A stretch of 61,352 nt of DNA, filler included. It is 4 parts of 4 records of this genome, joined end to end, with 100 filler letters (N's around TTAATTAATTAA, not from the genome) between each part and the next. Parts side by side here need not be neighbours in the genome. Positions count along the whole stretch, not along the records: positions 1 to 20,132 come from SRR31156797_12269; positions 20,233 to 46,766 come from SRR31156797_12290; 2 more parts are not named here. The stretch is one strand, 5' to 3'. Below, piece after piece: positions 1 through 46,766 of the stretch. A model generated the notes under the pieces. It was not told where the DNA came from and searched no databases. It was given only the letters and a program-made list of their open reading frames with translations. How positions within the stretch are numbered: the stretch's first letter is position 1; each line of letters opens with the position of its first letter. Both the position numbers and the translations under genes were made by a program.

Positions 1-54
1 AAACCCTTTTGCAAAAGGGTTTAAGAATCCTAAAACTTTTTAATAGGCTTCGCG
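1..54 (+). repeat. Dispersed hairpin repeat, partial copy (5' part cut by window/contig start)
   Basis: Perfect 22-bp palindrome AAACCCTTTTG/CAAAAGGGTTT at 1-22, then AAGAATCCTAAAACTTTTTAATAGGCTTCGC. Aligns by eye with copies at 20055, 39791 and 46691. Confidence 0.85.
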
Positions 55-113
55 TCTGTTGTCTGGTTAAACCGTTGGATGATTATACGGCACTCTTCTC
101 TGGTTTTCGGAGA

Positions 114-138
114 ATCCCCGAAGGGCAGCCGAAGGCAA
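114..138 (-). repeat. Inverted partial copy of the same repeat (5' module)
   Basis: Reverse complement TTGCCTTCGGCTGCCCTTCGGGGAT matches TTGCCTTCGGCGGCCCTGCCGGGGA (20055) and TTGCCTTCGGCGACCCTCCGGGGG (39791). Confidence 0.75.
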
Positions 139-162
139 TCTTCCATGTTTTTTAAAACAAGT

Positions 163-1044
163 CTAGTTGCGGTTAGTCAGCCAAACTCCGAAGATGGTCA
201 ATGCACCTCCGGTTACGAGAAAAAGATCCACGGGTTCACCCAGTATGATAGCACCGAGAGCTACAGCCGTGATCGGTACCAGATTGATGAAAATCCCGGT
301 TTTGGACGGTCCGATTTCCTGCATTGCTTCGAAATACCAGCTGAATCCGAGGCTTGTTCCGAGCAGGGCCAGATAGATTATGCAGCTGTAATCCACAAAA
401 GATGCATTGATCATTTCAGACAGTAGCCCGTGATATAGGGCTGGGCCTAATAGCATAGCTGTTCCGAACAGGCAGCACCAGTAGACCATTTCAATGGGAT
501 GGATCTTTTTCATTACCGGTTTTCCGGCCAGAGAGTAAGCCGCCCAACTGATTACGCAGCCTATTATGCATAAATCTCCGTAACTCGTCCCCTCTGTAAG
601 TATAGATATGGGGTTGCCGTGTCCGATAATGGTGCTGACCCCGGTCAGGGCCAGAATGAATCCGGCAATCTTCCAAAGCGTAAATTTTTCCTTGAAAATT
701 AGTGCTGAACCAAGGGCGATAAACGTAGGAGTGGCGGCAATTATGAGTGCTGCCCTGCCAGCGGTAACGGTCTGCAATCCACTGAAAAACAGAATATTGT
801 ACAGGAAAACTCCGGTCAGCCCGAGGAATGCCAGCGGTAATATATCTGCTTTGGTGCAGCTGGGCTTTTTGCCTGTGGCGCGGCAGGTTAGGAAAAACAT
901 GAAGATGCTCGCAAAGAAAAAGCGCAGGAATGCTGCAGAGTAGGGGGTCAGGTCGCCAGCAAGGATTCTTCCGGCAATCCAGGTTCCGCCCCAAAAAACA
1001 ACAGAGCCGATAAGTTTAAAGTAGAGCAGTGCGGGTGATGACAT
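163..1044 (-). CDS. DMT/EamA family transporter
   Basis: 293 aa, about 10 hydrophobic segments, two EamA-like halves (FWGGTW...AAFLRF; GVFLYNILFFSGL; NLVPITAVALGAIILGE). Confidence 0.93.
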   Translation of the reverse strand: MSSPALLYFKLIGSVVFWGGTWIAGRILAGDLTPYSAAFLRFFFASIFMFFLTCRATGKKPSCTKADILPLAFLGLTGVFLYNILFFSGLQTVTAGRAALIIAATPTFIALGSALIFKEKFTLWKIAGFILALTGVSTIIGHGNPISILTEGTSYGDLCIIGCVISWAAYSLAGKPVMKKIHPIEMVYWCCLFGTAMLLGPALYHGLLSEMINASFVDYSCIIYLALLGTSLGFSWYFEAMQEIGPSKTGIFINLVPITAVALGAIILGEPVDLFLVTGGALTIFGVWLTNRN

Positions 1045-1090
1045 GATGTTTCCTGTTGTGGCAGCGGATTGATGGAAATGTGGACGGGAA

Positions 1091-1120
1091 ATTATTACGA
1101 TTAATGGAATACACCGTCAA
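1091..1120 (-). promoter_or_regulatory. Putative sigma70 promoter of the EamA gene
   Basis: Minus strand TTGACG-N18-AATAAT, about 45 nt upstream of the ATG. Confidence 0.45.
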
Positions 1121-1136
1121 TTCATGAATGGAATTT

Positions 1137-1690
1137 AGAACAATGTTCTTTGTGTAGATGAGCGGAAGTTTTTCTTATATTGCGGATTCTGGTTTTTCAG
1201 TGCTTTCTCATTGGTGTTTGCTGTGAAAAATTAGTGCATAATTTTGGATTCCGAAGAATGTTCGGGGAGCTTGCTTTGTTCTGCTTTATTACATAATATA
1301 CGAACTTAATTCGTCAAGTTACATTTGGCCTTAAAATACTCCTGATTCTTGTATAACCGTTTTCTGTTCTTCCGAAATCATACTTTTGTACTAATTGTTT
1401 TTTCAGCTTTGCAGCAATGATTCGTGTTGCTCATTATATATTGTTATGGCTGTTTCCTACAAAAATGTATGTTGCTTGATGGATGTCTACGTTCTTGATT
1501 GATCAATTAATCAGTGGGCAAATGATGTATGATGCATGTTTTGATGTGCAGTAGTCGAAAATTCAGGTATAAAAACTAATATGCAGAAAATGATTCGGTT
1601 AGATTGCTGTTTTGCTTAACTTTTGATGTTTTGGTGCGCGTTGTAAGGTTATTTTTTCTTGACAAAACCTTTAAAATTGAATTTTATTCT
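1137..1690. promoter_or_regulatory. Five Lrp/AsnC-type 13-bp operator-like palindromes
   Basis: AGAACAATGTTCT 1137-1149, CGAAGAATGTTCG 1252-1264, CGAACTTAATTCG 1301-1313, AGAAAATGATTCG 1585-1597, TGAATTTTATTCT 1678-1690. They resemble the E. coli Lrp consensus AGAATTTTATTCT and lie next to an Lrp-family gene. Confidence 0.55.
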
Positions 1691-1699
1691 AAAAGACAA

Positions 1700-2179
1700 A
1701 TGAATAAGAGAAAGATTGACGAAACTGACCGTAGAATTCTGACAATACTTCAGAATAGTGGCCGAGTCTCCAATGCTGACATCGCAAGAAAGGTCGGCAT
1801 GGCTCCTTCAGCAGTACTTGAGCGTGTCCGTAAATTGGAACGTAAAGGTGTGCTTACCGGATATGAGGCTATTGTTGACCCCAAGGCCGTTGGGCGCTCC
1901 CTTACTGCCTTTATCTTTGTGAATGTAAATGAAGGCGTGGGCGCTACCTCCACTGGTGAGGAACTTACCCGTGTTCCGGGTGTGCTGGAAGTGCATTATT
2001 GCGCAGGTCGGGACAGCTACCTCATCAAGGTTCGTTGTGAAGATACCGACGGACTGGCTATTATGCTGGGGCAGATCGGAAGGATCGAAACCGTCAGGGA
2101 CACCAATTCAACCATTGTATTAAACACCATCAAGGAGTCTCGGGCAATTCCTCTGGAAGAGGAAGATTACGAATCATAG
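1700..2179 (+). CDS. Lrp/AsnC family regulator, probable PutR-like regulator of putA
   Basis: IDETDRRILTILQ..SNADIARKVGMAPSAVLERVRKLE HTH plus C-terminal RAM domain. Start moved to ATG 1700. Directly upstream of putA. Confidence 0.92.
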   Translation: MNKRKIDETDRRILTILQNSGRVSNADIARKVGMAPSAVLERVRKLERKGVLTGYEAIVDPKAVGRSLTAFIFVNVNEGVGATSTGEELTRVPGVLEVHYCAGRDSYLIKVRCEDTDGLAIMLGQIGRIETVRDTNSTIVLNTIKESRAIPLEEEDYES

Positions 2180-2319
2180 CAGACTGTGAAATATCCCGTG
2201 TGCAGGCTCGGCAGTGTGAGCCTGTTACTTCCTGTTTATTCAGGTTCGGAGTGATTTTTGATCGGTCTGCAAAATTTATGATTTTGAAGAACTATTAAAA
2301 ATCTCAAGGAGAGTCAGGT

Positions 2320-5300
2320 ATGAACGCAGAAGTCTCCACTCTGGACAACAAAGTAATAGAACGCGGGAAACAGTTTTTTGATTCCATATCCGGTGAAGCG
2401 CCTTCAGTCTTTAATAAAGGCTGGTGGACAGGTAAGGTTATGGACTGGTCCATGAAAAACGAAGATTTCAAGGTCCAGATGTTTCGCTTTGTTGACGTCC
2501 TGCCATACCTGAATACTTCCGAGTCCCTTTCAAGGCATATTGAAGAGTATTTTGCCGGTGAAGACAGCAATATCCCCGATGTCCTCAAATGGGGTGCAAC
2601 CAAGACCGGTTTTGGTGGCGGACTTGTGGCCAAGGTGCTGAACAAGACCATCCGGTCTAATATTGAGGGGATGGCCCGTCAGTTTATTATCGGCCAGAAA
2701 TCCAAGGAAGCTGTTAAAGGTATCCGCAAGCTGCGTAAGGACGGATTCGCATTCGTACTTGATCTGCTCGGTGAAGCAACCGTTTCCCACGAAGAAGCCG
2801 CAGCTTACCGTGATGGTTATCTGGAAGTCCTTGATGCCATTGAAAAAGAATACAAGAAATGGGATGCCCTTGATGCTTCCGGAGATCTTGACTGGGGACA
2901 TGCTCCCAAGATTAACGTTGCTGTTAAGCCTTCCGCTTTTTATTCCCAGTCCAAGCCTGTAGATCTTGAAGGAACTGTGCAGGGCATGATGGATGCCATC
3001 GAGCCTGTGTACAAGAAGATCATGGACATGGGCGGCTTCATGTGTATCGATATGGAAGCCCTCAAGTACAAAGAGCCTACTGTTGAGATGTATAAACGGT
3101 TCAGGAAAAAATATCCTGACTACCCGCATCTCGGAATTGTTTTTCAGGCCTACCTGCGCAGTGTGGATGATGATGTTTCCGGTTTGCTCGACTGGTCACG
3201 CGAAGAAAAACTGCCCATCTCTATACGTCTGGTAAAGGGTGCCTATTGGGATTACGAAACCGTACTTGCCAAGCAGAATGACTGGCCCGTCCCCGTATGG
3301 ACTCATAAACCTGAATCAGACATGGCCTTTGAGCGTGTTTCCAAGATGATTCTTGAGAATCACGATATCTGCCATTATGCCTGCGCATCTCATAACATCC
3401 GTTCCATTTCCTCAGTAATGGAAGTCGCTAATGAATTGAATGTTCCTGAAGAAAGATACGAATTTCAGGTTCTTTACGGAATGGCTGAGCCTGTGCGTAA
3501 GGGGTTGAGGAATGTTGCAAAGCGCGTTCGCCTTTATTGCCCCTACGGTGATCTTATTCCCGGTATGGCTTACCTTGTTCGCCGTCTGCTGGAAAACACC
3601 GCCAACGAATCTTTCCTTAAGCAGACCTTTGCAGATGAAGCTGACGTAAGCCGTCTGCTTGAGAATCCTGAACTTACCCTTGAGCGGGAACTTGCCGCTA
3701 AGCCCAAAAACAACCCGGGCAACAAAACCCCTGAAGGTGAGTTGCCGAGGTTTAACAACTATCCGCCTGCGGATTTCACTGTTAAAGAAGAGCGTGACGG
3801 TTTCCCGGCATCCATGGCGAAAATTCGTCAGGACTTCGGCAAGCGTTATCCGCTTTACATCGGTGGACAGGACATTGTTACCGATGACACCCTCGATTCC
3901 TATAACCCGGCTGACACTTCCGAGATTATCGGCTCTGTTTGTCAGGCCGGAACAGCGGAAGTCGATAAGGCTGTAGCTACTGCCAAACAGGCTTATCTTG
4001 ATTGGCGAGATGTAGAGCCGAAAGAACGCGCCCAGTACTTGCTTAAGGCTTCTCAGTATCTCAAAGACAATATGTATGAGCTTTGCGCAATGCAGGTCCT
4101 TGAAGTAGGCAAACAGTGGGATCAGGCTCAGGGGGATGTTGCCGAGGCCATCGACTTCCTCGAATATTATGCTCGCGAAATGATCCGCCTCGGCAATCCC
4201 AGACGTATGGGTAACGCTCCGGGTGAATATTCTCAGTATTTTTATCAGGGCAAAGGTGTTGCCGCAGTTATCGCACCATGGAACTTCCCGCTGGCTATCA
4301 GTGTGGGGATGGTTTCCGCAGCTATTGTTTCCGGTTGCCCGGTTGTTTACAAACCTGCCGGAATTGCTTCCGCAGTTGGTTATGGCATCGTGGAAATGTT
4401 TAAGGCCGCAGGACTGCCGGATGGCGTTTTCAACTATTGCCCTGGTCGCGGTTCGGTAATGGGTGACCATCTGGTTGACCATCCCGATGTCTCAGTCATC
4501 GCTTTCACCGGATCAATGGAAGTCGGCCTGCGCATTCAGGAGCGTGCTGCCAAGGTTCATTCCGGTCAGGAACAGTGCAAAAAAGTTATCGCTGAAATGG
4601 GTGGTAAGAACGGTATCATCATTGATGATGATGCTGATCTTGATGAAGCCGTACTCGGTGTGCTTTATGCGGCTTTCGGTTTTCAGGGGCAGAAATGCTC
4701 GGCTTGTTCCCGCGTTATTGTTCTTGATTCCATCTATGACCGTTTTATCCACCGCCTCAAGGAAGCTGCAGCATCCATCAAGCTTGGACCCGCTGAAGAT
4801 CCAACTAATTACATGGGGCCGGTTGTCGATAAGGCAGCTCAGAAAAACGTGCTCGAGTACTGCAAAATTGCCGAAGAAGAAGGTAGTGTGGTTATTAAGC
4901 ATGAAGCTCCCGCCGAATACCGTGATAAGGGCTGTTATGCTCCGCTGCTGGTTGTGGACGGCATCACTAAGGAAGACCGTATTGCTCAGGAAGAAGTCTT
5001 TGGACCTGTCCTTTCCATCATGCGGGCCAAGGATTTTGACGAAGCTCTCGACATCGCCAATTCTACCAGATTTGCGCTCACCGGTGCGGTTTACTCCAGA
5101 AGTCCCAAACATCTTGAAAAGGCTTCCCGTGAATTCCGGGTTGGTAATCTCTACTTGAACAAACCCAGCGTTGGTGCTTTGGTTGAACGCCACGCATTTG
5201 GCGGATTCAAGATGTCCGGTGTTGGCTCCAAGGCCGGCGGTCCCGATTACCTGCTCCAGTTCATGGACCCGCGCCTTGTTTGCGAAAACACCATGCGTCG

Positions 5301-5343: not shown

Positions 5344-5365
5344 TTCTAATTGAAGAATAGAAAAT

Positions 5366-5411: not shown

Positions 5412-5429
5412 ATCTGTAGTAGTTAAAGG

Positions 5430-14368: not shown

Positions 14369-15529
14369 ATGAAAAACATGTTTAGAAAGATCTTATGGCT
14401 GGTTGCGATTCTGATCCTGAGTGTAATGTTTACGGCTCAACCATTACTCGCTCAGGATACCGAGACCGGAGAAACTGCCGGGGTGACTGAGACCGCCGAT
14501 CCTACCGATCCTGGTGAAACTACTGATCCTGGAACAACTGAAGAGGAAACCGAGGCTCCGGCGTTTGCCAATCCTGCTCAGGCGGCAAAGGCTGAGACTC
14601 TAGCTGCAGCTGATGCTGAAGCCAAGGCTGAGGAATTCGGCGAGGCTATTGCTGAGGCGGAAGCTGAAGTTGCCTCTGCTCAGGAAAATGTGGATACCGC
14701 AACAACCTCAGTCGAAACAGCCCAGACCTCAGTGGACGGTTACAATTCTGATCTTGAAACTGCTGAAGCGGATATAGCTGCAGCTAATGATGCAATTACC
14801 GCAGCCAATGATGCAATTGCCGCAGCTGCTGAAGCTGAAGACGCTGAAGCTCTGGCAGCAGCTGAGACTGATCTTGCTACCGCACAGGCTGATTTGGACG
14901 CAGCAGAAACTGCCAAGGCTGAAGTTGAGTCCGGTTTGACTGCCGCCGAAGCTGACCTTGATGCAGCTTCCGCCGAACTTGCTGCCGCGCAAAGTAGTCT
15001 CGAGACCGCTAAGGCTGCAGCTGATGAAACTCTCTCAGCAGCCGCAGCAGTTGATACTGATGCCATTGCTTCCATGCGCGAACAAGGTATGGGCTGGGGC
15101 GAAATTGCCCATGAACTCGGCGTGCATCCCGGTACTCTTGGGTTGGGTCACCAGAAGAAGGCTCAGGAGCGTACTAATGCAGCAGGAGTCTCATCGACCG
15201 CTAAGAATTACGGTCAAAGTAAGAAGGCCGCAGCTGCTACTTCGCGTAATACGAAGACCGGTGTGTCCTCGACTCCCGGTGTTTCGGGCGGCAAGGGTGA
15301 TAAGTCTGTCGGCCTGAGCCGTGCTTCCAGTAAGGCCCAGAGCGGTGCCAAGGGCTCTGAATCTGCATCAAATGGTAAGTCCTCCGGTGGACGAGGCAAT
15401 TCCGGCGGAGGAGTTAGTGGTGGAGCTGGAGCGAGCACTTCTAATGCCAATGCTGCTTCAAGTGGATCTCAGGGCAAGGGCTCCGGCAGGGGTAACAAGG
15501 GTGGAAATGGTAAGGGCAACAACAAGTAA
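14369..15529 (+). CDS. Secreted Ala-rich coiled-coil, low-complexity hypothetical protein
   Basis: Signal peptide, acidic T/E/P linker, Ala/Glu/Asp heptads, IASMREQGMGWGEIAHELGVHPG motif, basic G/S/K tail. Strong SD GGAGGAG. Confidence 0.85.
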   Translation: MKNMFRKILWLVAILILSVMFTAQPLLAQDTETGETAGVTETADPTDPGETTDPGTTEEETEAPAFANPAQAAKAETLAAADAEAKAEEFGEAIAEAEAEVASAQENVDTATTSVETAQTSVDGYNSDLETAEADIAAANDAITAANDAIAAAAEAEDAEALAAAETDLATAQADLDAAETAKAEVESGLTAAEADLDAASAELAAAQSSLETAKAAADETLSAAAAVDTDAIASMREQGMGWGEIAHELGVHPGTLGLGHQKKAQERTNAAGVSSTAKNYGQSKKAAAATSRNTKTGVSSTPGVSGGKGDKSVGLSRASSKAQSGAKGSESASNGKSSGGRGNSGGGVSGGAGASTSNANAASSGSQGKGSGRGNKGGNGKGNNK

Positions 15530-20054: not shown

Positions 20055-20132
20055 TTGCCTTCGGCGGCCCTGCCGGGGACCTTAAACCCTTTTTACAAAA
20101 ATGGTTTAAGAATCCCAAAAACTTTTATTAGG
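20055..20132 (+). repeat. Dispersed hairpin repeat, runs into the assembly gap
   Basis: TTGCCTTCGGCGGCCCTGCCGGGGAC-CTTAAACC..GGTTTAAG-AATCCCAAAAACTTTTATTAGG, abutting the hemB RBS. Confidence 0.88.
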
Positions 20133-20232
20133 NNNNNNNNNNNNNNNNNNNNNNNNNNNNNNNNNNNNNNNNNNNNTTAATTAATTAANNNNNNNNNNNN
20201 NNNNNNNNNNNNNNNNNNNNNNNNNNNNNNNN
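20133..20232. other. Artificial contig linker
   Basis: 44 N + TTAATTAATTAA (stops in all six frames) + 44 N. Confidence 0.99.
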
Positions 20233-20276
20233 GGGTTCTCTGGACTCTCCCAAAACCTTTTAGTATGGCTTCGCCG
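20233..20276 (+). repeat. 3' part of the dispersed hairpin repeat at contig start
   Basis: GACTCTCCCAAAACCTTTTAGTATGGCTTCGCCG matches the 3' end of the 46691 and 39791 copies. Confidence 0.75.
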
Positions 20277-20306: not shown

Positions 20307-20375
20307 AGGGATTCCAAAGGGGATTATCCCCTTTGACTGCCAGAGGCGAAATCACCTGACAAAAGCGCGTAGCGC
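20307..20375 (-). repeat. Inverted copy of the repeat plus GCGC-GTA-GCGC mini-hairpin
   Basis: Reverse complement of 20307-20352 is ATTTCGCCTCTGGCAGT-CAAAGGGGAT-A-ATCCCCTTTG-GAATCCCT, compared with ATTTCGCCTCCGGCGGCT at 46691. GCGCGTAGCGC lies at 20365-20375. Confidence 0.78.
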
Positions 20376-20403
20376 ATCAAAATAATGCTATCAGGAGAAA
20401 TTC

Positions 20404-20697
20404 ATGAGTGATGAAAAACTCAATTTAGAGGAAGTTGCCCGCGTGGCCAACCTTGCAAGACTTGATTTATCAGAAGAAAAAACTGAACTTTTTGCAGGAC
20501 AGCTCAATAACATCCTCACATACATGGACAAGTTGAACGAAATTGACACCAGCGAAGTGGAACCGATGTTCAGCCCGGTGGAACACACCACCAGACTGCG
20601 CAAGGATGAGATCAAGAAAGAACATACCAGAGATGAAGTTCTTTCCAATGCTCCTGATTCTGACGGTAAGTACTTTGTAGTTCCCCGCATCGTATAA
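20404..20697 (+). CDS. gatC: Asp/Glu-tRNA amidotransferase subunit C
   Basis: VANLARL, ILTYMDKLNEIDT, NAP...YFVVPRIV. Confidence 0.96.
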   Translation: MSDEKLNLEEVARVANLARLDLSEEKTELFAGQLNNILTYMDKLNEIDTSEVEPMFSPVEHTTRLRKDEIKKEHTRDEVLSNAPDSDGKYFVVPRIV

Positions 20698-22185: not shown

Positions 22186-22207
22186 CAAGTCATAAATTGA
22201 ATTAATT

Positions 22208-22242
22208 AAGCCCCGCGCTCTTATGAGTGCGGGGCCTTTTTT
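22208..22242 (+). terminator. Terminator after gatA; member of a repeated terminator family
   Basis: GCCCCGCGCTC-TTAT-GAGTGCGGGGC followed by CTTTTTT. Reverse complement is near-identical to 24735-24767. Confidence 0.85.
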
Positions 22243-22437
22243 ATGCTCAATACACATAGTTATCACGAGCATCGCTAGTATTTTTAATTAGAAAGCAGTA
22301 TTTAATTATTTTTCCTCTAAAAACTTTTCATGTCTTTTCAGTGTGTTATACAAAAAATCAAAACAAATATCAATTTAATGCAAATTTCCTTCATAGTATT
22401 GCTTGACTTTATCCAAAGAATAGTGGAGTTTCTCTTC

Positions 22438-22864: not shown

Positions 22865-22894
22865 TCTGTTTCTGTAAGTCTTAAAAGACTTTTT

Positions 22895-22931
22895 AACGCC
22901 CGGTTCTCTTATGAGAATCGGGCGTTTTTTA
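22895..22931 (+). terminator. Terminator after the RRM gene
   Basis: AACGCCCGGTTCTC-TTAT-GAGAATCGGGCGTT followed by a T tract. Confidence 0.85.
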
Positions 22932-23004
22932 TGGTGGATTAAACGTAACCTTATAAGATATAAGAACACCACTTGCTGAAATTCGTCATTTAAAAGAGGT
23001 ACAC

Positions 23005-24726
23005 ATGGGCTGCTGCGTTGGGGCTGAGCATAATAATTGGTGTGAAGATTACGACATCGTTTATATTGATGCTGAGGGGAAAGAGTATTGTATTTTTCAT
23101 GCTCCTGCGGATTGTAAGTTTAATGGTAAATACAATGAAAGGCTAGGTGGAGCCAAACCAGCTTTGATGGATGCTGAGCAGTTTAATAGGTTGGTTTTTG
23201 ATCGGATTGATGGGGTTATTGAGGCTGGGGAAGATGAGGAGCGGGATGAATTTGACATTGCTCGTGCCATAGAAGGAGGCTGGAACCCTAGATGCAATTT
23301 CACAGGCACTATTTTCCCTCATGCCATTTCATTTTCAAAATACAATGAACAGAACGATAAATATTTACCCCCAATTAATTTTAAAAGTTCACTGTTCCGC
23401 GAAGGCGCTTCTTTCAAAAACATACAGTTCCTCAGGAATGCTAATTTCGAGGAAATGACGTTTGAAAAGCAATCTGATTTTAACAATGCTCTATTTAAAA
23501 TAAATACATGCTTCAGAGGAAGCATTTTCAAAGAAGCCACTTTTTTCATTGAAACCAAATTTTATGGTAATGCAGACTTTAGAAACACACATTATGCTGA
23601 ATCAAATTTTTCAAATTGCACTTTCTTTAAAGGTGTCGAGTTCAATTATTCGGAATTCAAGAAAACAATCCATTTCAAAAACGTTACAATAAATCACCAA
23701 GCAATATTTAATTATGCAGTTTTTTTGGGAAACGCAATTTTCATCGACACAAACTTTAACTGCAAAACCTATTTTATCGGAACCACATTTTCAAATAGCA
23801 AAAATAAGCCAGCTTTCATACGAAGCTCGTTCAATGACTATGCGAACTTCGAACAAACAAAATTTAGTGGTGGCGTTAATTTCAAATTAGCATTTTTCAA
23901 TGAATGGTCATACTTTCGCAATGCTGAATTATCTAAAGAAACAACCTTCGCCGGAACAATATCAAAAGAGACCATCTTAATGGAATCCACGGACTTATCA
24001 AACCTTAGATTCGCAGAGACCAATATAGAATCTTTCAAATTCATCAACTGTAAATGGGGTGAAGAAAGATTCGCTCCTATCTATGATGAAGAATATCAAG
24101 AAAATACGAATTGTACCGACACCACCCTAGCCGAAATATACCGCCGCCTAAAGAGAATTGCCCGCGAAAGTGCAGACGAAGAACAGACTTCACATTGGCA
24201 CTATCGAGAAAAAGAGATGACTCGCAAAAGCCTTTCGTGCATTCCCCTCGCACCAGTCTTGCGCATGCTCATTCTAGCTATTAGCGCTCTTTGTCTAACC
24301 GGCTGGATTCTAAAAAACACGCACCCGTCTTTGCTAAATGTAGGAATATATTTCTCTGTACTCATCATAACTGTATTTATCATTTTTTATTATAAAAAAA
24401 AAATATCAGACATCAACAAAGTCGCTTCAAAACTTTACCTGAACACCTACAAACTCATAAGCGGCTACGGCGAAGACCCAATCCAGGCTGGTACAATTCT
24501 ATTCAGCCTCGTTTCTCTCCCTATTATTATTCAATTCATATTAAGTTTAACACCATTGGGTAACAAAGAATGGCTCACAATTGCCCTCTGGTACATGCCC
24601 CTAATCAAAATCGAAATCTACAACTCCCAAGGCTACCACTACCTCCTAAAAGGCATCTCAGTAACCTTGATAACCCTCCAAGCAGCCCTCTTCGGTTTCG
24701 CCCTGCGAAACAAGCTACGCCGCTAA
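23005..24726 (+). CDS. Pentapeptide-repeat membrane protein
   Basis: N-terminal CC..C..CIFH motif, many AxFxxxxF repeats, YRRLK..HYRE segment, C-terminal TM helices with SGYGEDP. AT-rich core. Confidence 0.85.
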   Translation: MGCCVGAEHNNWCEDYDIVYIDAEGKEYCIFHAPADCKFNGKYNERLGGAKPALMDAEQFNRLVFDRIDGVIEAGEDEERDEFDIARAIEGGWNPRCNFTGTIFPHAISFSKYNEQNDKYLPPINFKSSLFREGASFKNIQFLRNANFEEMTFEKQSDFNNALFKINTCFRGSIFKEATFFIETKFYGNADFRNTHYAESNFSNCTFFKGVEFNYSEFKKTIHFKNVTINHQAIFNYAVFLGNAIFIDTNFNCKTYFIGTTFSNSKNKPAFIRSSFNDYANFEQTKFSGGVNFKLAFFNEWSYFRNAELSKETTFAGTISKETILMESTDLSNLRFAETNIESFKFINCKWGEERFAPIYDEEYQENTNCTDTTLAEIYRRLKRIARESADEEQTSHWHYREKEMTRKSLSCIPLAPVLRMLILAISALCLTGWILKNTHPSLLNVGIYFSVLIITVFIIFYYKKKISDINKVASKLYLNTYKLISGYGEDPIQAGTILFSLVSLPIIIQFILSLTPLGNKEWLTIALWYMPLIKIEIYNSQGYHYLLKGISVTLITLQAALFGFALRNKLRR

Positions 24727-24780
24727 CAGAACGCAAAAAGCCCCGCACTCATCAGAGCGCGGGGCTTTTCACTATCTCAT
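24723..24780 (+). repeat. Terminator-like direct repeat, copy 1
   Basis: CTAACAGAACGCAAAAAGCCCCGCACTCATCAGAGCGCGGGGCTTTTCACTATCTCAT. Confidence 0.85.
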
Positions 24781-24798
24781 AAATCCATTCTACATCCA

Positions 24799-26098: not shown

Positions 26099-26154
26099 CT
26101 AACAGAACGCAAAAAAACCCGCACTCATTCGAGCACGGGGCTTTCAACTTTCAT
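26099..26154 (+). repeat. Terminator-like direct repeat, copy 2
   Basis: CTAACAGAACGCAAAAAAACCCGCACTCATTCGAGCACGGGGCTTTCAACTTTCAT. Confidence 0.85.
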
Positions 26155-26166
26155 ATCAAACAGAAA

Positions 26167-31921: not shown

Positions 31922-33379
31922 TTAGTAGGAATCAACCCGGTAGTTGGGTGCTTCCTTGGTAATAATAACATCATGTACGTGGCTTTCCTTGAAACCGGCG
32001 GGAGACATGCGGGTGAACTGTGCTTTTTCTGCCATTTCAGCAATATTAGCACAACCAACATAACCCATACCGGAACGGAGTCCGCCGATTATCTGGTAGA
32101 CACTGTCGGAAACGGGTCCTTTGTAGGGGACGCGTCCAACAATTCCTTCGGGAACCAATTTGTTGGTATCCTTCTGGAAGTAACGGTCGGAGCTACCTTT
32201 CTTCATTGCATCAATGGAACCCATTCCGCGATAAAGCTTATAGCTGCGACCTTGATAAAGAACTTTTTCACCGGGGCTTTCATCGGTACCAGCAAACATG
32301 GAACCCATCATTACGGTATTTGCACCCGCAACCAGAGCTTTAACAACGTCACCGGAGAATTTGATACCACCATCGCCGATTACACATACACCGCGTTCCT
32401 GACAGGCACGGGCAGCTTCCATAATCGCGGTAATCTGCGGAACACCAACACCGGCAACAACACGGGTGGTGCAGATGGAACCGGGACCGATGCCAACTTT
32501 AACAGCATTTACACCGGCATCAATCAGAGCCATGGCACCGTCGTAAGTAGCAATGTTACCACCGATGATCTGAACACCTGGGTAGCAAGAACGGAGTTCC
32601 TTGATAGCCTCAAGGATGCCTTTGGAATGACCGTGTGCGGAATCAAGAGTCAGGAAGTCAACACCTGCGGAAATAAGCGCAGAGCTGCGTTCCATAAGAT
32701 CGCGGCCAACACCAACAGCAGCACCTACACGCAGGCGGCCTGCTGAATCCTTAGCTGCATTGGGGTACTTCTTGACCTTATCAATATCCTTAATGGTGAT
32801 CAGGCCGGTAAGCTTGTTTTCCTCGTCCACAACCAGCAGTTTTTCAATGCGGTTGGTGTGCAGGTGGCGTTTTGCCTCTTCAGTAGAGGTGCCTTTCTGT
32901 ACGGTAACGAGGTTACGGCTGGTCATCACTTCGGAAACAGGTGCATTACGGTCAGTGATGAAGCGTACGTCACGGTTGGTGATGATACCAACAAGGTGCT
33001 CACCTTTAACAACCGGGAAACCGGAAATTTTGAATTCAGCCATGAGGTCGAGAGCCTTACCCACGGTGTCATCAGGATGAACCACAATGGGATCGGTAAC
33101 CATACCGGACTCGGATTTTTTAACCCTTTCAACTTCACGTACCTGATCGCGTACGCTCATATTCTTATGAACTACGCCGACACCGCCGTGACGGGCCATC
33201 TGGATCGCCATCTTGGACTCGGTGACAGTATCCATTGCGGCACTGACCAGTGGGATTCCAAGAGTGATCTCTTCGGTAAGTTTGGCGGATACGTCCACGC
33301 TATCGGGAAGAACTTCCGAATAGGCGGGCAAAAGCAGAACATCGTCAAAAGTCAGAGCCTGACCTACTACCTTTTCCAT
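31922..33379 (-). CDS. guaB: IMP dehydrogenase
   Basis: [19 protein letters not shown] pair, [20 protein letters not shown]. Confidence 0.98.
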
Positions 33380-33412
33380 ATTGCCCTCGCAAAATGATTT
33401 GAAATATTAGCT

Positions 33413-33552
33413 AAAAGAAAAGAGAAATCATTACATATGATTCCTCTCAAGGGACCGCTCCGGTCGTTTTTGGCGATCTGCCGGGCAGCGGCACCATCAG
33501 TTTATCAGGGGTTTTGGCAGGTTCTTCCCTGCCGGAAATTTCAAATTTTTAT
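33413..33552 (-). promoter_or_regulatory. Structured 5' leader of guaBA with terminator-like hairpin (candidate attenuator/riboswitch)
   Basis: Minus-strand hairpins GGCAGG/CCTGCC and GACCG/CGGTC, then AGAGGAATCAT/ATGATTTCTCT followed by TTTCTTTT, before the ATG. Confidence 0.5.
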
Positions 33553-33558
33553 GAACTG

Positions 33559-33586
33559 ATTATATACTTTTTTGTCGCGGACTCAA
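33559..33586 (-). promoter_or_regulatory. sigma70 promoter for guaBA
   Basis: Minus strand TTGAGT-N16-TATAAT. Confidence 0.65.
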
Positions 33587-33665
33587 GGCCGGAACAGAAA
33601 AGTTATTTAAAGTGTTCGGCCCCGCATATTTGCAGGGCCGATTTTTGTCAACAATTATGTTTACC

Positions 33666-34373
33666 TTATAAGCCCAAATAGGCTTTTTTGATGTCCTCGT
33701 TAGCGAGTAGTTTGTCACTGGTATCCGAGAGTATTATTTCCCCGTTTTCCATGACATAACCCCGATGAGCTGTCTTCAATGCGAGGTTTGCATTCTGCTC
33801 GACCAGAAAAACGGTAGTGCCACTTTCCTCGTTAATTTTCTTAACAATATCAAAGATCTGCCGAATAATAAGTGGTGCAAGCCCCAAAGAAGGTTCATCA
33901 AGCAGCAAAAGTTTAGGTCGAGCCATGAGTGCACGGGAAATAGCAAGCATCTGCTGTTCACCACCTGAGAGGTTACCTCCAAGCTGCTTGCGGCGCTCAA
34001 AAAGAATGGGAAAAAGCTCGAAGACATGATCCATGTCAGCCTTGACCCCGTCCTTATCATCACGCAGGAACGCACCCATGTCGAGATTCTCGGTGATGGT
34101 CAGGTCCGGAAAGATCAAACGTCCTTCAGGAACCTGAGAGATACCCATCTTTACGATTTTGTCCGGCTTGGCCTTATGGATCGGCTCACCGTTGTAGAGC
34201 ACTTCACCTGTCCGGGGCGGTACAACTCCACTGACAGTCATCAGCGTTGTGGTTTTCCCCGCACCGTTGGCCCCGATAAGGGTGATAATTTCACCCTGCC
34301 CTACTTCGATATTAATATTTCGCAGGGCCTGAATATTTCCATAAAAAGTATTTACATTTTTAAGTTTAAGCAT
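33666..34373 (-). CDS. livF: Branched-chain amino acid ABC ATPase
   Basis: GANGAGKTT, VPEGR, LSGGEQQML, DEPSLGLAP, VEQNA. Confidence 0.95.
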   Translation of the reverse strand: MLKLKNVNTFYGNIQALRNINIEVGQGEIITLIGANGAGKTTTLMTVSGVVPPRTGEVLYNGEPIHKAKPDKIVKMGISQVPEGRLIFPDLTITENLDMGAFLRDDKDGVKADMDHVFELFPILFERRKQLGGNLSGGEQQMLAISRALMARPKLLLLDEPSLGLAPLIIRQIFDIVKKINEESGTTVFLVEQNANLALKTAHRGYVMENGEIILSDTSDKLLANEDIKKAYLGL

Positions 34374-39024: not shown

Positions 39025-39648
39025 CTATTGATCAGCGTGAGCATCCCGTTTCAGTTCATCTTCAGCACGCTTTTTCATTTCAGCCGAAGATTTGGGGTTA
39101 TCAATAATCTGCTTCAGCTGAACATCAGCTTCTTCATGCTTATGCAGGTAGTATTTTTTCACGATGGCAGCATTAAACAGTGCCATGGAATCATCCGGGG
39201 TAATAGCTATAATCTTATCAAAAGCTTCAGCAGCCTTATCGAACTGTTCAGCCTGATAAAAACACATACCCAGTCCCATCAGAGCCTGCACATTTTTCGG
39301 CTCAACGCTGACCACTTTTTCAAAGAAGGTCTGCGCGCGGCCATAGGCCCTGATCATCATGAAGGAATTAGCGAGCTCGAGCTGGATTTCCAAATTGTCC
39401 GGTTCCTTGCCCATACGCTCCATGAGTTCACGAACATGCTTCATAGCATCTTCACTCATTCCCTCACCCATGCCACCGGGCATTCCACCACCGCTGCTGC
39501 GCTGCTGGAATTCAACCTTATTGCCGGGGTGGCTCATACGGTAAGTGAGCGATGAAACAAACAACGCTACGAGAGCCAAACCCAACAGCCAGACGACAGC
39601 TTTCTGTCCTCCGCTGAGGGTAAAGTCTTTGAGAGATTTACTTGTCAT
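39025..39648 (-). CDS. Membrane-anchored TPR protein (CcmI/CycH-like partner of the ccm operon)
   Basis: One TM, Gly/Met linker, TPR repeats; last gene of the ccm cluster. Start set at ATG 39648, overlapping the ccmD end. Confidence 0.8.
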   Translation of the reverse strand: MTSKSLKDFTLSGGQKAVVWLLGLALVALFVSSLTYRMSHPGNKVEFQQRSSGGGMPGGMGEGMSEDAMKHVRELMERMGKEPDNLEIQLELANSFMMIRAYGRAQTFFEKVVSVEPKNVQALMGLGMCFYQAEQFDKAAEAFDKIIAITPDDSMALFNAAIVKKYYLHKHEEADVQLKQIIDNPKSSAEMKKRAEDELKRDAHADQ

Positions 39649-39778
39649 TATCGAGCATCTCCATCTGCCTGATACGGCGGTCCATGGATGCACCCTTGGC
39701 CGCGATAAATGCCAGATAACCGGCAAGAACGGCCCAAACAGCAATATTCGCAATCAGAAGATAATTTTCACTGTTCAT
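39638..39778 (-). CDS. ccmD: CcmD-like heme exporter small protein (46 aa, not in the ORF track)
   Basis: MNSENYLLIANIAVWAVLAGYLAFIAAKGASMDRRIRQMEMLDNDK: one TM plus charged tail; SD AAGGAG; follows ccmC. Confidence 0.82.
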   Translation of the reverse strand: MNSENYLLIANIAVWAVLAGYLAFIAAKGASMDRRIRQMEMLDNDK

Positions 39779-39790: not shown

Positions 39791-39870
39791 TTGCCTTCGG
39801 CGACCCTCCGGGGGCTTAACCCCTTTGAGAAGGGTTTAAAAATCCCAACCTTTTCAGTAGGACTTCGCCG
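39791..39870 (+). repeat. Complete dispersed hairpin repeat inside the ccm operon
   Basis: TTGCCTTCGGCGACCCTCCGGGGGC-TTAACCCCTT..AAGGGTTTAA-AAATCCCAACCTTTTCAGTAGGACTTCGCCG between ccmC and ccmD. Confidence 0.88.
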
Positions 39871-39891: not shown

Positions 39892-40557
39892 TTAATCTTG
39901 ATCCCAAACCATGCGGGCATCTAATTTGCCCGAAAGCCTTACCTGACGGTAACGTACCAGCAGCAAGACCAGCCAGAACAAACCAAATGCAGCCAGATTA
40001 ACCAGCAAAGTGGTCAACATTTCAGGCTCCATCCCGCCGCCCTTTGCACCGATTACGTTGGGATGTACACTTCTCCAGAGTCGCGCAGAGTAAAAAACGA
40101 GAGGGACATCTACAAATGCGACAACTCCGAGAACCGCACAGACAAGGGAGCGGCGTTCAGCCGACATGGGTGAAGTCCTGAGCACGAGATAAGCGGCATA
40201 GACAAACCACATAATTAATGTAGTGGTCAGCCGCGGGTCCCATGTCCACCAGACATTCCATGCTGCCCTGCCCCAAATAGAACCGGTAACAAGAGCCAGA
40301 CCGCTGAAAACAACTCCGATCTCAGCAGCTGATCCGGCAATGTAATCAAACTTGATATCACGTTTCAGCAAATACGCCGCACTGGCGAGGAAGACCACGA
40401 AAAAACTGATCATGGCCCACGCCGCCATTGGCATGTGGACATAGAAAATCTTCTGAACAAGCCCCATGGTCATTTCAATGGGTGCATACATCCAGATGAG
40501 ATACTGTCCGGCACAGAGCGCTGCACCAGCCAGCAGTGCTGCGATTGCAAGGTTCAT
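39892..40557 (-). CDS. ccmC: Cytochrome c biogenesis protein CcmC
   Basis: [29 protein letters not shown] (WWD domain), W.SVHP. Confidence 0.95.
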
Positions 40558-41269: not shown

Positions 41270-41942
41270 TCTCCCCTCCCAGTACGGTTTCAGGGTCGAA
41301 TTCAGAAGCAGCACCAAGATAGGCCATCTTGCGTCCGGCCAGTCCGAGGACCCGGTCGGCTAATGCTGTATCATGGTTCACATCATGACTGATCCAGACA
41401 ATCGCGGTTCCACGGTCACGCATGGCAACAACCTCATCACGCAATAAGGTGAGTGAAGCCTGATCAAGTCCTGTCCCCGGCTCATCCAAAAAAAGGAGAT
41501 CCGGACTTACGAGGAAGACACGGGCCAGATTCAAACGCTGGGCCATACCTCTTGAATAGGAACCGGCTTGTTCTTCGGCTGCACGCTCCAACCCAACCCG
41601 TTTCAACAGAGCCATCAGCTCTTCACGAGATGGATAAAGGCCGTACATGGAAGCCCAGAATGAAAGGTTCGCCACCCCACTAAGACGTGGATAAATAAAA
41701 GTGGAATGCCCAAGATAGGCGGTCTTTTCCGGCTCAGTCAAAATCTCCGCAGCCCCGGCCGAAGGCCTTGAAAGCCCAGACATGATCTTGAGCAAGGTTG
41801 TTTTGCCCGCACCGTTGCGCCCTACTACTAGGAGAATTTCCCCACGCAGCACATCGCAACTGACATCCTTGAAAATCAGCCTTGTTCCAAAGAACTTAGC
41901 CGCCTTTCTCACCTTTAGAGCTATACTTTCATTCTCAGCCAC
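41262..41942 (-). CDS. ccmA: Heme exporter ATPase CcmA
   Basis: GRNGAGKTT, YLGH, YSRGMAQRL, LDEP.TGLD. Confidence 0.92.
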   Translation of the reverse strand: MAENESIALKVRKAAKFFGTRLIFKDVSCDVLRGEILLVVGRNGAGKTTLLKIMSGLSRPSAGAAEILTEPEKTAYLGHSTFIYPRLSGVANLSFWASMYGLYPSREELMALLKRVGLERAAEEQAGSYSRGMAQRLNLARVFLVSPDLLFLDEPGTGLDQASLTLLRDEVVAMRDRGTAIVWISHDVNHDTALADRVLGLAGRKMAYLGAASEFDPETVLGGENA

Positions 41943-41952
41943 TTTAATCCGC

Positions 41953-43830: not shown

Positions 43831-43911
43831 ATTATATTTACTCCATTACGGATAAAATCTTTATAAAAACGGGAACTTCAACACAAAAGCATTGAAGCAT
43901 GACCGCAGGAA

Positions 43912-44328
43912 TCACCCTTCGCGGTTTTCCTTTTCGTACTTAGACGGACACTTGGTAATCAGGGAGGTGGCTTTGAACAGCTTATTGCCGCCGACAAAAG
44001 TACCCTCCACAATAACCTCAACCCCCTCTTTAAAGGTATCGGGGACTGCTCCGCTGTAATCAACGCGGATGGTCTGGGTGTTTTCCTTCTGATCGGTAAG
44101 ATCAAAAGCAACGCCGAGTCCTCCAGCCTTAGACTCAATATTCTGAGGTGCAACCTTACCGAACAGCCTTGCCTGTCCAAGCTCAGCTTCATTCATGGTA
44201 AGAGCCTCTGAAACATTAAGAAAATACACGCTGTCCTGAGAAATACCCGAGTAAATCAGGTAGCCCAGTCCACCGAGAAAAAGGATCAAGGCGGCTACAT
44301 AAACGCCTTTTCCACCTTTCTTGGCCAT
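43912..44328 (-). CDS. ccmE: Heme chaperone CcmE, Cys variant
   Basis: YSGAVPDTF.EG, TKCPSKY (CxxxY). Start set at ATG 44328. Confidence 0.93.
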   Translation of the reverse strand: MAKKGGKGVYVAALILFLGGLGYLIYSGISQDSVYFLNVSEALTMNEAELGQARLFGKVAPQNIESKAGGLGVAFDLTDQKENTQTIRVDYSGAVPDTFKEGVEVIVEGTFVGGNKLFKATSLITKCPSKYEKENREG

Positions 44329-44341
44329 CTCGTACTCCGTT

Positions 44342-45403
44342 TTATTTCGAAACGTCAGCGGAAGCATCTTCCTTGCTGACGACCAGTTCTTTTCTTCTCC
44401 TGCGAGCAAGTTCGCGCATATCCACGACCTGATCGGTCTCGTCCACGATCTCGCTACCTAGGATCTCTTCCATAACATCTTCAAGGGTTACAACCCCTGA
44501 CATTCCACCGTATTCATCAAGCACCACAAAAAGATGCATGCGACTTTCAAGGAATTTCACCAAAAGCTTATCCAGCGTGATGTTCTCCAGTGCAAAACGG
44601 ACCGGTTTCATCAGTTCTGAAAGCTTCACATCGTCATGGTCATCCGCAAGCGCTTCAAAAACTGAACGCCTGTAAATAACTCCGACAATATCTTCGGGAT
44701 CATCCCCTTCATACACAGGAATACGGCTGTGAGGCCATGCGCTGTATTTGGCATGAGCCTCGGCTACGGTCATCTCAGCAGGAAGAGAGAACACAACAGT
44801 CCGGGGGGTCATAATTTGCTCAACAATCTTGTCGTCCAACGACAAAATGTTAGCAATTGAGAGGGCTTCATAAGGTTTAATCGCCCCGGATCTCCTGGTC
44901 AGGCTGACCATAGCTCTTATATCCTCTTCCGTGGCCTGCGGGCCTTCACTCTTCCTATTTACAAGGCGGGAGAAAATACCGCAGATCCAAATAACCGGAA
45001 GAAATATCCAGATTAAAATTTCCATAGGCCGGGCTAAAACCCGTCCCAGAGGTTCACAGTAAACCACGCCTATCGTCTTAGGCAGAATTTCAGAAAGGAC
45101 GAGAATAATAATTGTGAAACCAAGCGTGAACCAAGGCAGGGTTTCGGCACCATAAACAGAAGCCCACGCGGCCCCGGCAAAAGCGGCTCCGGCGGTATGG
45201 GCAACAGTATTGAGGGTCAGGATTGCAGTGATGGGCCGGTCCACATTAGAACGCAGCTTATGCAGGATCGCCCCGGACTTATGTCCTTCCTTACGCAGAG
45301 TTTCAATCCTGCTCCACGGAAAAGAATAAAAAACAGCTTCACTGACGGAACAGTAAGCGGAGATAAGTGTAGCTACACTGACGGAAAGTATTAATTCCAG
45401 CAT
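44342..45403 (-). CDS. CNNM/DUF21-CBS (hemolysin/CorC-like) membrane protein
   Basis: SEILPK, IMTPR, HSRIPVY, VLDEYGG..GVVTLEDVMEEILG.EIVDETD. Confidence 0.92.
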   Translation of the reverse strand: MLELILSVSVATLISAYCSVSEAVFYSFPWSRIETLRKEGHKSGAILHKLRSNVDRPITAILTLNTVAHTAGAAFAGAAWASVYGAETLPWFTLGFTIIILVLSEILPKTIGVVYCEPLGRVLARPMEILIWIFLPVIWICGIFSRLVNRKSEGPQATEEDIRAMVSLTRRSGAIKPYEALSIANILSLDDKIVEQIMTPRTVVFSLPAEMTVAEAHAKYSAWPHSRIPVYEGDDPEDIVGVIYRRSVFEALADDHDDVKLSELMKPVRFALENITLDKLLVKFLESRMHLFVVLDEYGGMSGVVTLEDVMEEILGSEIVDETDQVVDMRELARRRRKELVVSKEDASADVSK

Positions 45404-45665
45404 TAATTTTTGAGTTAAAATTGTTAAATAATGCCATCCGGCATCAATTTGATACTGGCATCAGTATCAGAAGGCAGATAGTGGCGCAATAAAAATAGGA
45501 CGGGCTAAACCCTTAATCCCTACGGTTTTGCTACAAAATAAATTTATAAGATAAAATTAGCAAGAGTTCAAACAGTTAGAGTGAAAAAATAATCATTACT
45601 TCCCCATCCAATGCACGACAAAAAGACATTGACCTTTTGAGTTTCGCCATTAAAATATGCGCGCG

Positions 45666-46670
45666 ATGACAAACACAAATCACAAAGTAGTATTCAGACT
45701 CAGCGCCCTTGGGGACGTAGTACTAACCACTGGAATAATTGAGTACTGGGCAAAAAAGTATAACTGTACCTTCACAGTTATTACCAAAAGCTCCAGCAGT
45801 CCTATATTAAAAAATAACCCTCATATAAAAAATGTCATCAGTCTTGAAAAGAAAGACCTCGGTGATCTGGCATGGGTTAAAAAAGCCGGAGAAATTGCAT
45901 CTCGGTACGAAGGTTGCGAACTCATAGATCTGCACTCCACCCTGCGCTCCAGAATCCTTGCCACTCGCTGGAAAGGCAAAGTCTCACGATACAACAAATT
46001 TTCCCTTGAACGCCGTATGTTCAAGCTGACCCGCTCAGCCAAGCTGAATAGCAAACTTTCCGAGCTTCGGGTTACCCAGCGTTACGCTTCTGCTCTTGAA
46101 GAAAGCATCCCGGCAGCTTCTGAACTTCTGCCACATATCTATCTTGCTGAAGATGAAAGAAGTATCGCCCGCACGCTGATAGAAGAACATGACTTGGGTC
46201 AGAATTTCATTACCCTGCATCCCTACGCCACTCATCCGGACAAAGCATGGCCTAAAGAAAACTGGGATATACTTATTAATAAGCTGGATGAGGCAAATAT
46301 AAAGTGGACCATCATCGGACGTGACGACAATGTTTTCGAACCACAATCTGCCGGGTCTAATTTTACCAGCCAGTTGCAACTGCGCGAAACGTGCGCTCTG
46401 CTGGAGAAATCAGTACTGCTGATCTCTGGAGATTCAGGCCCTATGCATCTTTCCGCCGCGGTGGGAACTCCGGTTATCGCCATGTTCGGTCCCACTTCAA
46501 AAGCATGGGGATTCTATCCCGCCGGACCACACGATGTTGTTATGGAATCTGAAATGGATTGCCGCCCCTGCTCCCTGCATGGGAAAAGCAATTGCAAAAA
46601 AGACCGGGAATGCCTTAGAAAAATCACCCCGGAAGAGGTGTTTGAAAAAATACAGAATTTGATACGCTAA
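45666..46670 (+). CDS. Glycosyltransferase family 9 (heptosyltransferase-like)
   Basis: RLSALGDVV, DLH, KAWP, GDSGPMHLSAAVG.P..AMFGPT, CRPC. Start is 45657 or 45666. Confidence 0.92.
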   Translation: MTNTNHKVVFRLSALGDVVLTTGIIEYWAKKYNCTFTVITKSSSSPILKNNPHIKNVISLEKKDLGDLAWVKKAGEIASRYEGCELIDLHSTLRSRILATRWKGKVSRYNKFSLERRMFKLTRSAKLNSKLSELRVTQRYASALEESIPAASELLPHIYLAEDERSIARTLIEEHDLGQNFITLHPYATHPDKAWPKENWDILINKLDEANIKWTIIGRDDNVFEPQSAGSNFTSQLQLRETCALLEKSVLLISGDSGPMHLSAAVGTPVIAMFGPTSKAWGFYPAGPHDVVMESEMDCRPCSLHGKSNCKKDRECLRKITPEEVFEKIQNLIR

Positions 46671-46690
46671 CTGGCTTTAGGAATAAATAG

Positions 46691-46766
46691 ATTTCGCCTC
46701 CGGCGGCTCGAACCCTTTTGAAAAAGGGTTCAAGACTCCCAAAAACTTTTATTAGGGCTTCGCCGC
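46691..46766 (+). repeat. Dispersed hairpin repeat at contig end
   Basis: ATTTCGCCTCCGGCGGCTC-GAACCCTTTT-GA-AAAAGGGTTC-AAGACTCCCAAAAACTTTTATTAGGGCTTCGCCGC. Confidence 0.88.

Follow-up and report, generated by a model that had tools for sequence, protein, structure and literature searches.

What are the short structured repeats that lie between the genes of this stretch of DNA, and what keeps and spreads them? The window, by which we mean the whole stretch analyzed (61,352 nucleotides [nt]), is a pseudomolecule in which artificial 100-nt linkers (N/TTAATTAATTAA) at 20133-20232, 46767-46866 and 55206-55305 join four parts. It carries the core genes hemB, gatCA, his, guaAB and ccm, and its nearest named genome is that of Maridesulfovibrio sp. 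FT414 (G001; HemB 91%; G and L numbers denote genomes and loci). Synteny with seven relatives is confined to the piece 20233-46766. A first-pass annotation had described seven copies of a dispersed element of GNA-loop mini-hairpins around a variable stem. Here we show that these copies belong to a family of modular arms, present in Maridesulfovibrio and other Desulfovibrionaceae, in which the stem and a tract on its 5' side covary. As judged from sequence, the layout is that of a class I intrastrand DNA triplex of the purine motif, as defined in the main text of PMC4666352, and the arms probably constitute a mobile repeat that is kept for a triplex-type fold of single-stranded DNA (ssDNA).

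On the strand that carries the GNA loops, a complete arm consists of an inner GGC-GAA-GCC mini-hairpin, a few bases, AAAAG(G/T)TTTT, a tract of G, A and T, a linker of 2-4 nt (TCC, TCT or CTT), a hairpin stem of 8-28 pairs, an optional CCC-GNA-GGG and a terminal GCC-GGA-GGC, past which an outer GCGC-GNA-GCGC module is often present. Short arms lack the inner part. The arms measure 45-150 nt, carry one to three outer GNA mini-hairpins and occur singly or as inverted doublets. Loops of the GNA type are strongly overrepresented at the terminal (65/73), inner (49/53), optional (10/12) and outer (11/21) hairpins, compared with 327/1838 for such stems in the background. The earlier claim of GNA loops stands as a bias, with exceptions in the window at 20339 (GCC-AGA-GGC) and at 39861, where the inner hairpin is broken. 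The central stem does covary as had been proposed: with anchors set outside the stem, 432 of 522 positions were paired over 58 types, against 304±13 for swapped halves, and the pairs alternate among C-G, T-A, A-T and G-C. A spacer motif near the inner hairpin recurred in 5 of 65 flanks only and was not counted as part of the unit. As a separate observation, several genomes, among them G194 in its ccm copy, carry a 55-60 nt hairpin module inserted precisely where the linker joins the third strand to the stem (L106, L109, L186/L176, L240, L467, L520, L181); it is either a nested repeat or an optional domain.

The segment AATCCC/ACTCCC-AAAA-CTTTT in the layout of the first-pass annotation is no spacer; on the other strand it is a mirror-image third strand. 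The tract 5' of the stem repeats the purine strand of the stem in reverse, with T allowed for A, such that G stands opposite G and A or T opposite A. In 162 distinct core types (231 sightings) we scored 945 such triads, compared with 425±25 after swapping partners (maximum 499 in 1000) and 419±23 after shuffling letters. When the register was fixed from the stem alone, the letters opposite stem G (n = 649) were G 547, A 63, C 31 and T 8, and those opposite stem A (n = 267) were A 128, T 76, G 51 and C 12. The mirror was recovered within G001 alone (116 vs 55±9), within Maridesulfovibrio (222 vs 92±14) and in metagenome matches (559 vs 299±20), and also in 25 types fetched after the rule had been set (148 vs 66±11 triads, maximum 106). 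Triad numbers range from 3 to 17, the longest mirror (L163:2150-2252) having 17/17; five or more were present in 126/162 core types and six or more in 102/162. A direct-repeat model, which would imply alternative Watson-Crick pairing, was rejected: among 52 tracts with eight or more purines, the mirror beat the direct repeat in 37, tied in 11 and lost in 4.

The order of third strand, purine tract and pyrimidine tract, together with G·G-C, A·A-T and T·A-T triads, is the one that the main text of PMC4666352 gives for class I, and every parsed core has its third strand on the 5' side of the hairpin. ITxF defines the size of class I as 6-15 triads with loops of 1-6 nt. From this layout we infer that the arms would fold as triplexes. 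Purine-motif triplexes cannot form in RNA (PMC4666352), and the layout therefore argues for selection on ssDNA rather than RNA, in agreement with what the first-pass annotation had suggested.

In long arms the 5' strand of the stem turns from purines to a C-run followed by a T-run, and the mirror continues past this junction. The length of the third-strand G-run equals that of the C-run in 29/37 types (permutation mean 12.4, maximum 23). In a count that required no third-strand letter, G stood opposite C or T opposite T at 177/192 positions when one pair was skipped, compared with 143/191 with no skip, 116/192 with two pairs skipped and 87±8 in swaps. The purines past the junction are on the other stem strand, and the third strand runs parallel to that strand. 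A mirror of this form is as an alternate-strand triplex predicts, and the third strand apparently changes from one stem strand to the other. G,T third strands bind in either orientation (PMC2532714), and a single T-G step is tolerated in parallel triplexes according to simulations and the experiments cited with them (PMC4807104). Antiparallel triads in the window number six in 20307-20352 and five in 20233-20276, and two to three in each of the other four copies, to which 5-7 are added after the strand switch.

The copies in the window are as follows, with triads counted under the full rule:

1..54, minus strand: long arm cut by the window start, with inner GCGAAGC mini-hairpin (46-53), third strand (26-35), CTT linker and stem (1-22); the outer mini-hairpins are missing; 8/9 triads.
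108..136, plus strand: remnant of an opposite arm, comprising only CCC-GAA-GGG (117-125) and the terminal GCC-GAA-GGC (128-136), 26 nt from the stop codon of an EamA gene (163-1044, minus strand).
20055..20132, minus strand: long arm directly upstream of hemB, cut by the contig end, with third strand (20111-20120), stem (20081-20110), CCC-GGCA-GGG (20068-20078) and terminal GCC-GAA-GGC (20057-20065) 17 nt from the start codon; 8/9 triads.
20133..20232, no strand: artificial linker of 100 nt between unrelated contigs.
20233..20275, minus strand: left arm of the doublet that precedes gatC, its stem cut short by the contig end, with inner GGC-GAA-GCC (20267-20275) and third strand (20244-20255); 8/8 triads.
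20307..20378, plus strand: right, short-type arm of the gatC doublet, with third strand GGGATT (20308-20313), CC linker, stem (20314-20336), degenerate terminal hairpin (20339-20347) and outer GCGC-GTA-GCGC module (20365-20378); it ends 25 nt before gatC (20404-20697); 6/7 triads.
39791..39870, minus strand: single long arm in the gap between ccmC (39892-40557) and ccmD (39638-39778), with third strand (39841-39848), stem (39815-39840), CCC-GGA-GGG (39804-39812) and a terminal GCC-GAA-GGC (39793-39801) that abuts the ribosome-binding site; 7/7 triads.
46659..46766, minus strand: long arm after a heptosyltransferase-like gene (45657-46670), with inner hairpin (46756-46764), third strand (46735-46744), stem (46707-46734), terminal CGCC-GGA-GGCG (46695-46705) and a decayed outer module (46659-46675) that overlaps the stop codon; 9/9 triads.

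These sequences occur beyond chance. A 19-nt core pattern matched three times in the window against 0.01 expected, a number reached in 0/100 shuffles; a looser pattern of third strand and stem start was weaker, with four matches against 0.84 expected and a maximum of four in 100 shuffles. Folding as DNA gave z-scores of -5.1 (20307-20378), -3.2, -2.4, -2.4 and -1.4 for five copies and of about -0.2 (-0.16) for 108-140. The seven copies listed in the first-pass annotation are all there, but 114-138 holds just two terminal mini-hairpins, and 20233-20276 and 20307-20378 together make up a single inverted doublet. The copies at 1-54 and 108-136 appear to be a decayed doublet of the same kind. Contig breaks end three of the seven copies (20055-20132, 20233-20276 and 46691-46766), and the window start cuts a fourth (1-54). 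Because the linker at 20133-20232 joins unrelated contigs, the arm upstream of hemB is not adjacent to that upstream of gatC. The GCGC-GTA-GCGC that had been pointed out at 20365 belongs to the family as one of its regular outer modules. Overall, the earlier reading is supported in part; the mirror and triplex layout, the inverted doublets and the contig joins had escaped it.

The family is abundant, as had been predicted. Copy numbers are counts in the genomes of relatives: across 26 Maridesulfovibrio genomes, one variant has 0-202 copies per genome and its reversed control 0 in all, and the spread within the genus is 100-fold, some genomes having 0-3 copies of the main variant. The terminal motif was matched in 185/201 family genomes, many of them close to their own reversed control; clear excesses were seen in G001 (131 vs 3) and in G182, G134 and G198 (393-445 vs 34-63), the last of these having 445 vs 63. 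A stricter motif was found in 7/301 phylum genomes, more than once in three. Metagenome matches include low-GC relatives, and doublets are also present on prophage contigs. No match to Rfam reached the gathering score for the window or for 16 loci. The G001 chromosome gave no evident strand bias of the arms (70 vs 74), and a plasmid search returned only matches of 26-39 nt (E 0.02-0.9), which were not used as evidence. The short core of the arms is also present in a Rep_1 contig and, on the strand that bears the origin nonamer CAGTATTAC, in two CRESS-type contigs; a core in rolling-circle replicons fits a role in ssDNA and names no enzyme. CRESS-type and Rep_1 contigs (L322:989-1202, L324, L325, L537) were observed to hold the mirror-plus-hairpin core and arrays of GNA mini-hairpins in intergenic regions. 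Unrelated phage contigs showed a single similar arm (L117:4001, L122:4001) or GC-rich inverted doublets (L323, L326).

Close pairs of arms (<500 nt) face inward, by 8 vs 0 among the first 100 of 144 matches in G001 and by 10 vs 0 among 58 of 210 matches in G134; inverted doublets are overrepresented, as in REP and REPIN repeats. Orthologous sites, whose comparison the first-pass annotation had recommended, differ in occupancy. At hemB, where the arm lies between a conserved terminator-like hairpin and the start codon, 10 of 26 relatives are filled (six single, four doublet), one is decayed and 15 are empty. Of 25 relatives, 15 have no arm in the ccmC-ccmD gap of about 20 nt, five have a single arm, two a doublet and three decayed arms. 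G209 and G207, which are sisters (100/100), disagree in occupancy at both of these sites, and in opposite directions, and the gatC site is filled in 7/7 relatives with differing arm variants. Arms are gained, lost and exchanged for other variants at orthologous sites. No clear target-site duplication was seen at hemB, at ccmC-ccmD or at 33379-33666 of the window, with insertions old enough for the flanks to have drifted; flanking bases are frequently lost at filled sites, and the ends are ragged. Among the joints listed, no contig joint skips the copy at 39791, and contigs cannot show absence.

Most arms (70/73) are intergenic, with the terminal hairpin facing coding sequence at a median distance of 35 nt; by rough open reading frame (ORF) calls, it faces 43 stops and 27 starts. 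Gaps between divergent genes are nearly avoided (2/70, one of them a linker artifact). In G205, G207, G210 and G219 the GGAGG of the terminal hairpin replaces the native ribosome-binding site of hemB (L507, L512, L513, L516), and in the window an arm supplies the stop codon of the heptosyltransferase-like gene. These contributions look like by-products that make insertion tolerable. Arms were also observed in frame inside polyketide synthase (PKS), nonribosomal peptide synthetase (NRPS) and other long ORFs of low-GC metagenome contigs (L354:3-3020, L395:1-3021, L357, L359), and they resemble Rickettsia palindromic elements in this respect. At two loci (L460:508-2001; L179:86-2926 in G134), an IS481-like element (208 bits, cutoff 224) lies in the hairpin loop of an arm.

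An HUH (Y1) enzyme had been proposed to mobilize the element, and our searches do not bear this out. The Y1_Tnp model found only five IS200 copies with their own ends in five high-copy genomes, and no Y1 in G194, G009, G077 and G101. RAYT-like genes are present in 38/201 family genomes according to the RAYT model, but 0 of 30 examined RAYT/Y1-like loci are flanked by arms, with at least 76 further matches beyond those. Y2_Tnp is present in 2 of 201 genomes, unflanked, and DUF559, PDDEXK_3/GxxExxY and PDDEXK_2 each in 0/5 high-copy genomes. ORFs beside 80 of 128 metagenome loci contained no recurring nuclease family among the matches listed in an all-against-all BLAST, and 24 ORFs beside arms were host genes or unmatched. 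A search, not exhaustive, of 36 regions around widely spaced or paired arms encountered host genes or the inserted IS481-like element.

A GIY-YIG gene of 90-100 amino acids is the single ambiguous case, from searches for GIY-YIG in 26 genus, 201 family and five highest-copy genomes. It occurs in 25/26 genus genomes and is single-copy also in low-copy genomes. Inward-facing arms stand on both sides of it in G209 and G219, and an arm lies downstream in about six cases among the matches listed; it is bracketed in 0/24 further family loci and was not found in the five highest-copy genomes, where only long, UvrC-sized GIY-YIG frames are present. We read its neighborhood as arm insertion beside a host gene. 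In addition, G050 and G105 carry 12-13 divergent Y1-type genes of 300-370 amino acids per genome (L139, L140), with short GGGACAG-type inverted ends unrelated to the family.

The explanation we favor is a small nonautonomous mobile repeat whose unit would be the folded ssDNA arm. The third strand would fold back into the major groove of the stem and form antiparallel G·G-C, A·A-T and T·A-T triads along the lower purine tract; in long arms it would skip one A-T pair and then cross to the other stem strand, whose purines it would read in parallel G·G-C and T·A-T triads. Since arms stand as inverted doublets, each DNA strand would have one foldable arm at its 3' side. The triplex may form in transient ssDNA, at replication gaps or in transcribed DNA, and a trans-acting ssDNA nuclease, perhaps lost from these genomes or just visiting them, may cut at the fold, after which repair from another copy would insert or replace arms. 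Such a cycle would explain the missing target duplications, the small flanking deletions and the mosaic arms. Taken as a whole, with a trans-acting nuclease included, we regard this explanation as evenly balanced between right and wrong, or tipping just to the side of right. A bolder version holds that a natural alternate-strand triplex is the selected recognition structure of widespread ssDNA-phase mobile repeats, which have their core in common with rolling-circle replicons and would owe their spread to an undescribed enzyme that reads the triplex; this version is tentative, and we lean against it.

Several points weigh against a triplex-based mobile repeat. Exceptions to the mirror are frequent (G opposite A in 51/267 and A opposite G in 63/649), the types lack phylogenetic independence, and it was by eye, in the same data, that the rule was first spotted. 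The commonest Maridesulfovibrio variant, to which four window copies belong, has just two to three antiparallel triads, and its GGGATT could pair with AAACCC in Watson-Crick fashion. Similarly, the G-opposite-C part of the main window variant could be ordinary pairing in an alternative hairpin, although such a hairpin cannot explain G opposite G, A opposite A and T opposite T in other variants. The hold-out for the strand switch was small (33/37 positions in seven types, with a swap mean of 20.4 but a maximum of 33). Terminal-loop conservation concerns almost a single triplet (GGA, 64/73) and may reflect descent, and a mutational process that needs a triplex, rather than selection, could keep the mirror. 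For TM_ECO, in vivo footprinting showed no stable triplex (PMC4666352). Finally, apart from the ambiguous GIY-YIG gene in G209 and G219, no nuclease or transposase was found bracketed by arms in the genomes searched (RAYT, Y2, Ssn-type, DUF559, GxxExxY and PDDEXK_2).

The main rival dispenses with a dedicated enzyme: triplex arms would stall forks or be cut by host repair enzymes, and recombination and gene conversion would spread, delete and reshuffle them. In agreement with this, no cognate enzyme was found where copy numbers are highest, a single site can hold mosaic variants, the ends are ragged without duplication, and TM_ECO loci are linked to local instability (PMC4666352). Conversion needs a prior copy, however, and most relatives have no arm in the 20-nt gaps that arms fill elsewhere; strictly inward-facing doublets and a terminal motif conserved throughout the family suggest recognition by a protein, and the 100-fold difference in copy number within the genus also speaks against it. 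Spread without a dedicated enzyme is unlikely in our view, though well worth keeping in mind. We have stronger doubts about a cis element that serves the host, either as an ssDNA priming or single-stranded DNA-binding protein (SSB) exclusion signal or as an element in mRNA, placed at gene boundaries to tune translation or stability. Its appeal lies in the intergenic position of the arms with terminal hairpins toward coding sequence, in the GGAGG that stands in for the hemB ribosome-binding site, and in the mini-hairpins that are found at the G4 and ssiA priming sites and exclude SSB (PMC13037366). Against it, sites are empty in most relatives, some congeners have almost no copies of the main variant, arms face both stops and starts so that transcripts hold both orientations, and a purine-motif triplex is not an RNA fold.

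A REPIN-type element whose mover is a RAYT (HUH Y1), rare or lost in the family, would account for inverted doublets with variable spacers and for singlets as remnants (PMC3116915), and RAYT-like genes do occur in the family; the 30 RAYT/Y1-like loci examined and found unflanked, the four genomes with no Y1 and arm ends free of a GTAG or CGTC tag make it very improbable. Hardly credible, finally, is a classical miniature inverted-repeat transposable element of a DDE insertion sequence, or a G-quadruplex element. Doublets do have terminal inverted repeats, but the ends are modular, no clear target duplication accompanies them at three sites, and the IS481-like element was found inside an arm, as a guest. 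The canonical G-quadruplex pattern occurs in 16/162 core types, leaving 146 types with no such pattern, while 126 types have at least five triads.

The family resembles REPIN and BoxC repeats but lacks some of the features that define membership in either. Like BoxC, PIT and TM_ECO, it is intergenic, high-copy, variable between close relatives and sometimes arranged in inverted pairs, and it combines a hairpin with a purine-motif mirror-repeat third strand (PMC4666352, Holder et al. 2015). TM_ECO, however, is of class II, with the third strand 3' of the hairpin and a fixed 9-nt G/C pattern; by inspection against the main text of that paper, neither this order nor the 9-nt C-rich/G-rich/G-rich pattern is found in the present family, which is class I and, unlike TM_ECO, varies from 3 to 17 triads, crosses the purine-pyrimidine junction and bears GNA mini-hairpin caps. 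"Desulf" has 0 matches in that main text, and the accompanying database (class I 41.6%) may hold some copies uncharacterized. Inverted doublets with a variable spacer, singlets, an extragenic position and some in-frame copies are shared with REP, BIME and REPIN repeats and their RAYTs and with TIRtrons (PMC3116915, PMC3733652). Unlike these, the present family has modular arms of 45-150 nt, no flanked Y1 gene among the loci examined and a usual core, GGGGTCCA, with no GGGGWSAS motif. As had been noted earlier, it also has no classical REP tag: neither GTAG nor CGTC ends a palindrome of 20-40 nt, and in the window copies these words occur only in loops or flanks. NTS/SRM repeats and their Ssn GIY-YIG nucleases are likewise high-copy ssDNA hairpin repeats around genes and provide a model for a trans-acting ssDNA nuclease (PMC11893778, Chenal et al. 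2025); the degenerate SRM pattern was found in 0/101 arms and nowhere in the window. C-GNA-G triloops on one strand are known from the G4 origin, ssiA and N4 promoters (PMC13037366), whereas the GNA mini-hairpins described here are dispersed over the chromosome in mobile repeats.

The strand switch, if it folds, would be a first for a natural sequence. Synthetic triplexes of the alternate-strand type, with third strands of T and G, were reportedly obtained with designed oligonucleotides by de Bizemont et al. in 1996 and 1998. In these, as is proposed for long arms, the third strand follows the purines of one duplex strand up to the junction and those of the other strand beyond it; unlike them, the pattern described here is natural and intramolecular and is read from covariation. 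A literature search with subscription papers, the supplement of PMC4666352 and the ITxF tables outside its scope retrieved no description of the repeat family or of a natural strand switch.

Two further observations concern the window itself. An ORF of 386 amino acids at 14369-15529 has Ala/Glu-rich internal repeats and no Pfam match. A second, unrelated repeat consists of four similar terminator-like hairpins (AAGCCCCGC...GCGGGGC) at 22193-22253, 22887-22933, 24723-24783 and 26099-26159; they cluster around a pentapeptide-repeat gene, no more than 4 kb apart, where the sequence varies between relatives.

It is an open question whether bacteria form DNA triplexes and whether these matter, and the well-studied BoxC and TM_ECO repeats gave no in vivo signal. 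With hundreds of natural variants whose three strands vary in concert, the present family provides natural compensatory pairs for testing; the T-for-A swaps are explained by triad geometry only. In the literature searched, a strand-switching triplex is otherwise described for designed oligonucleotides only. For the genomes that carry them, these repeats reshape gene boundaries, insert in frame into PKS and NRPS genes and serve as a target for an IS481-like element, and short-read assemblies break at them.

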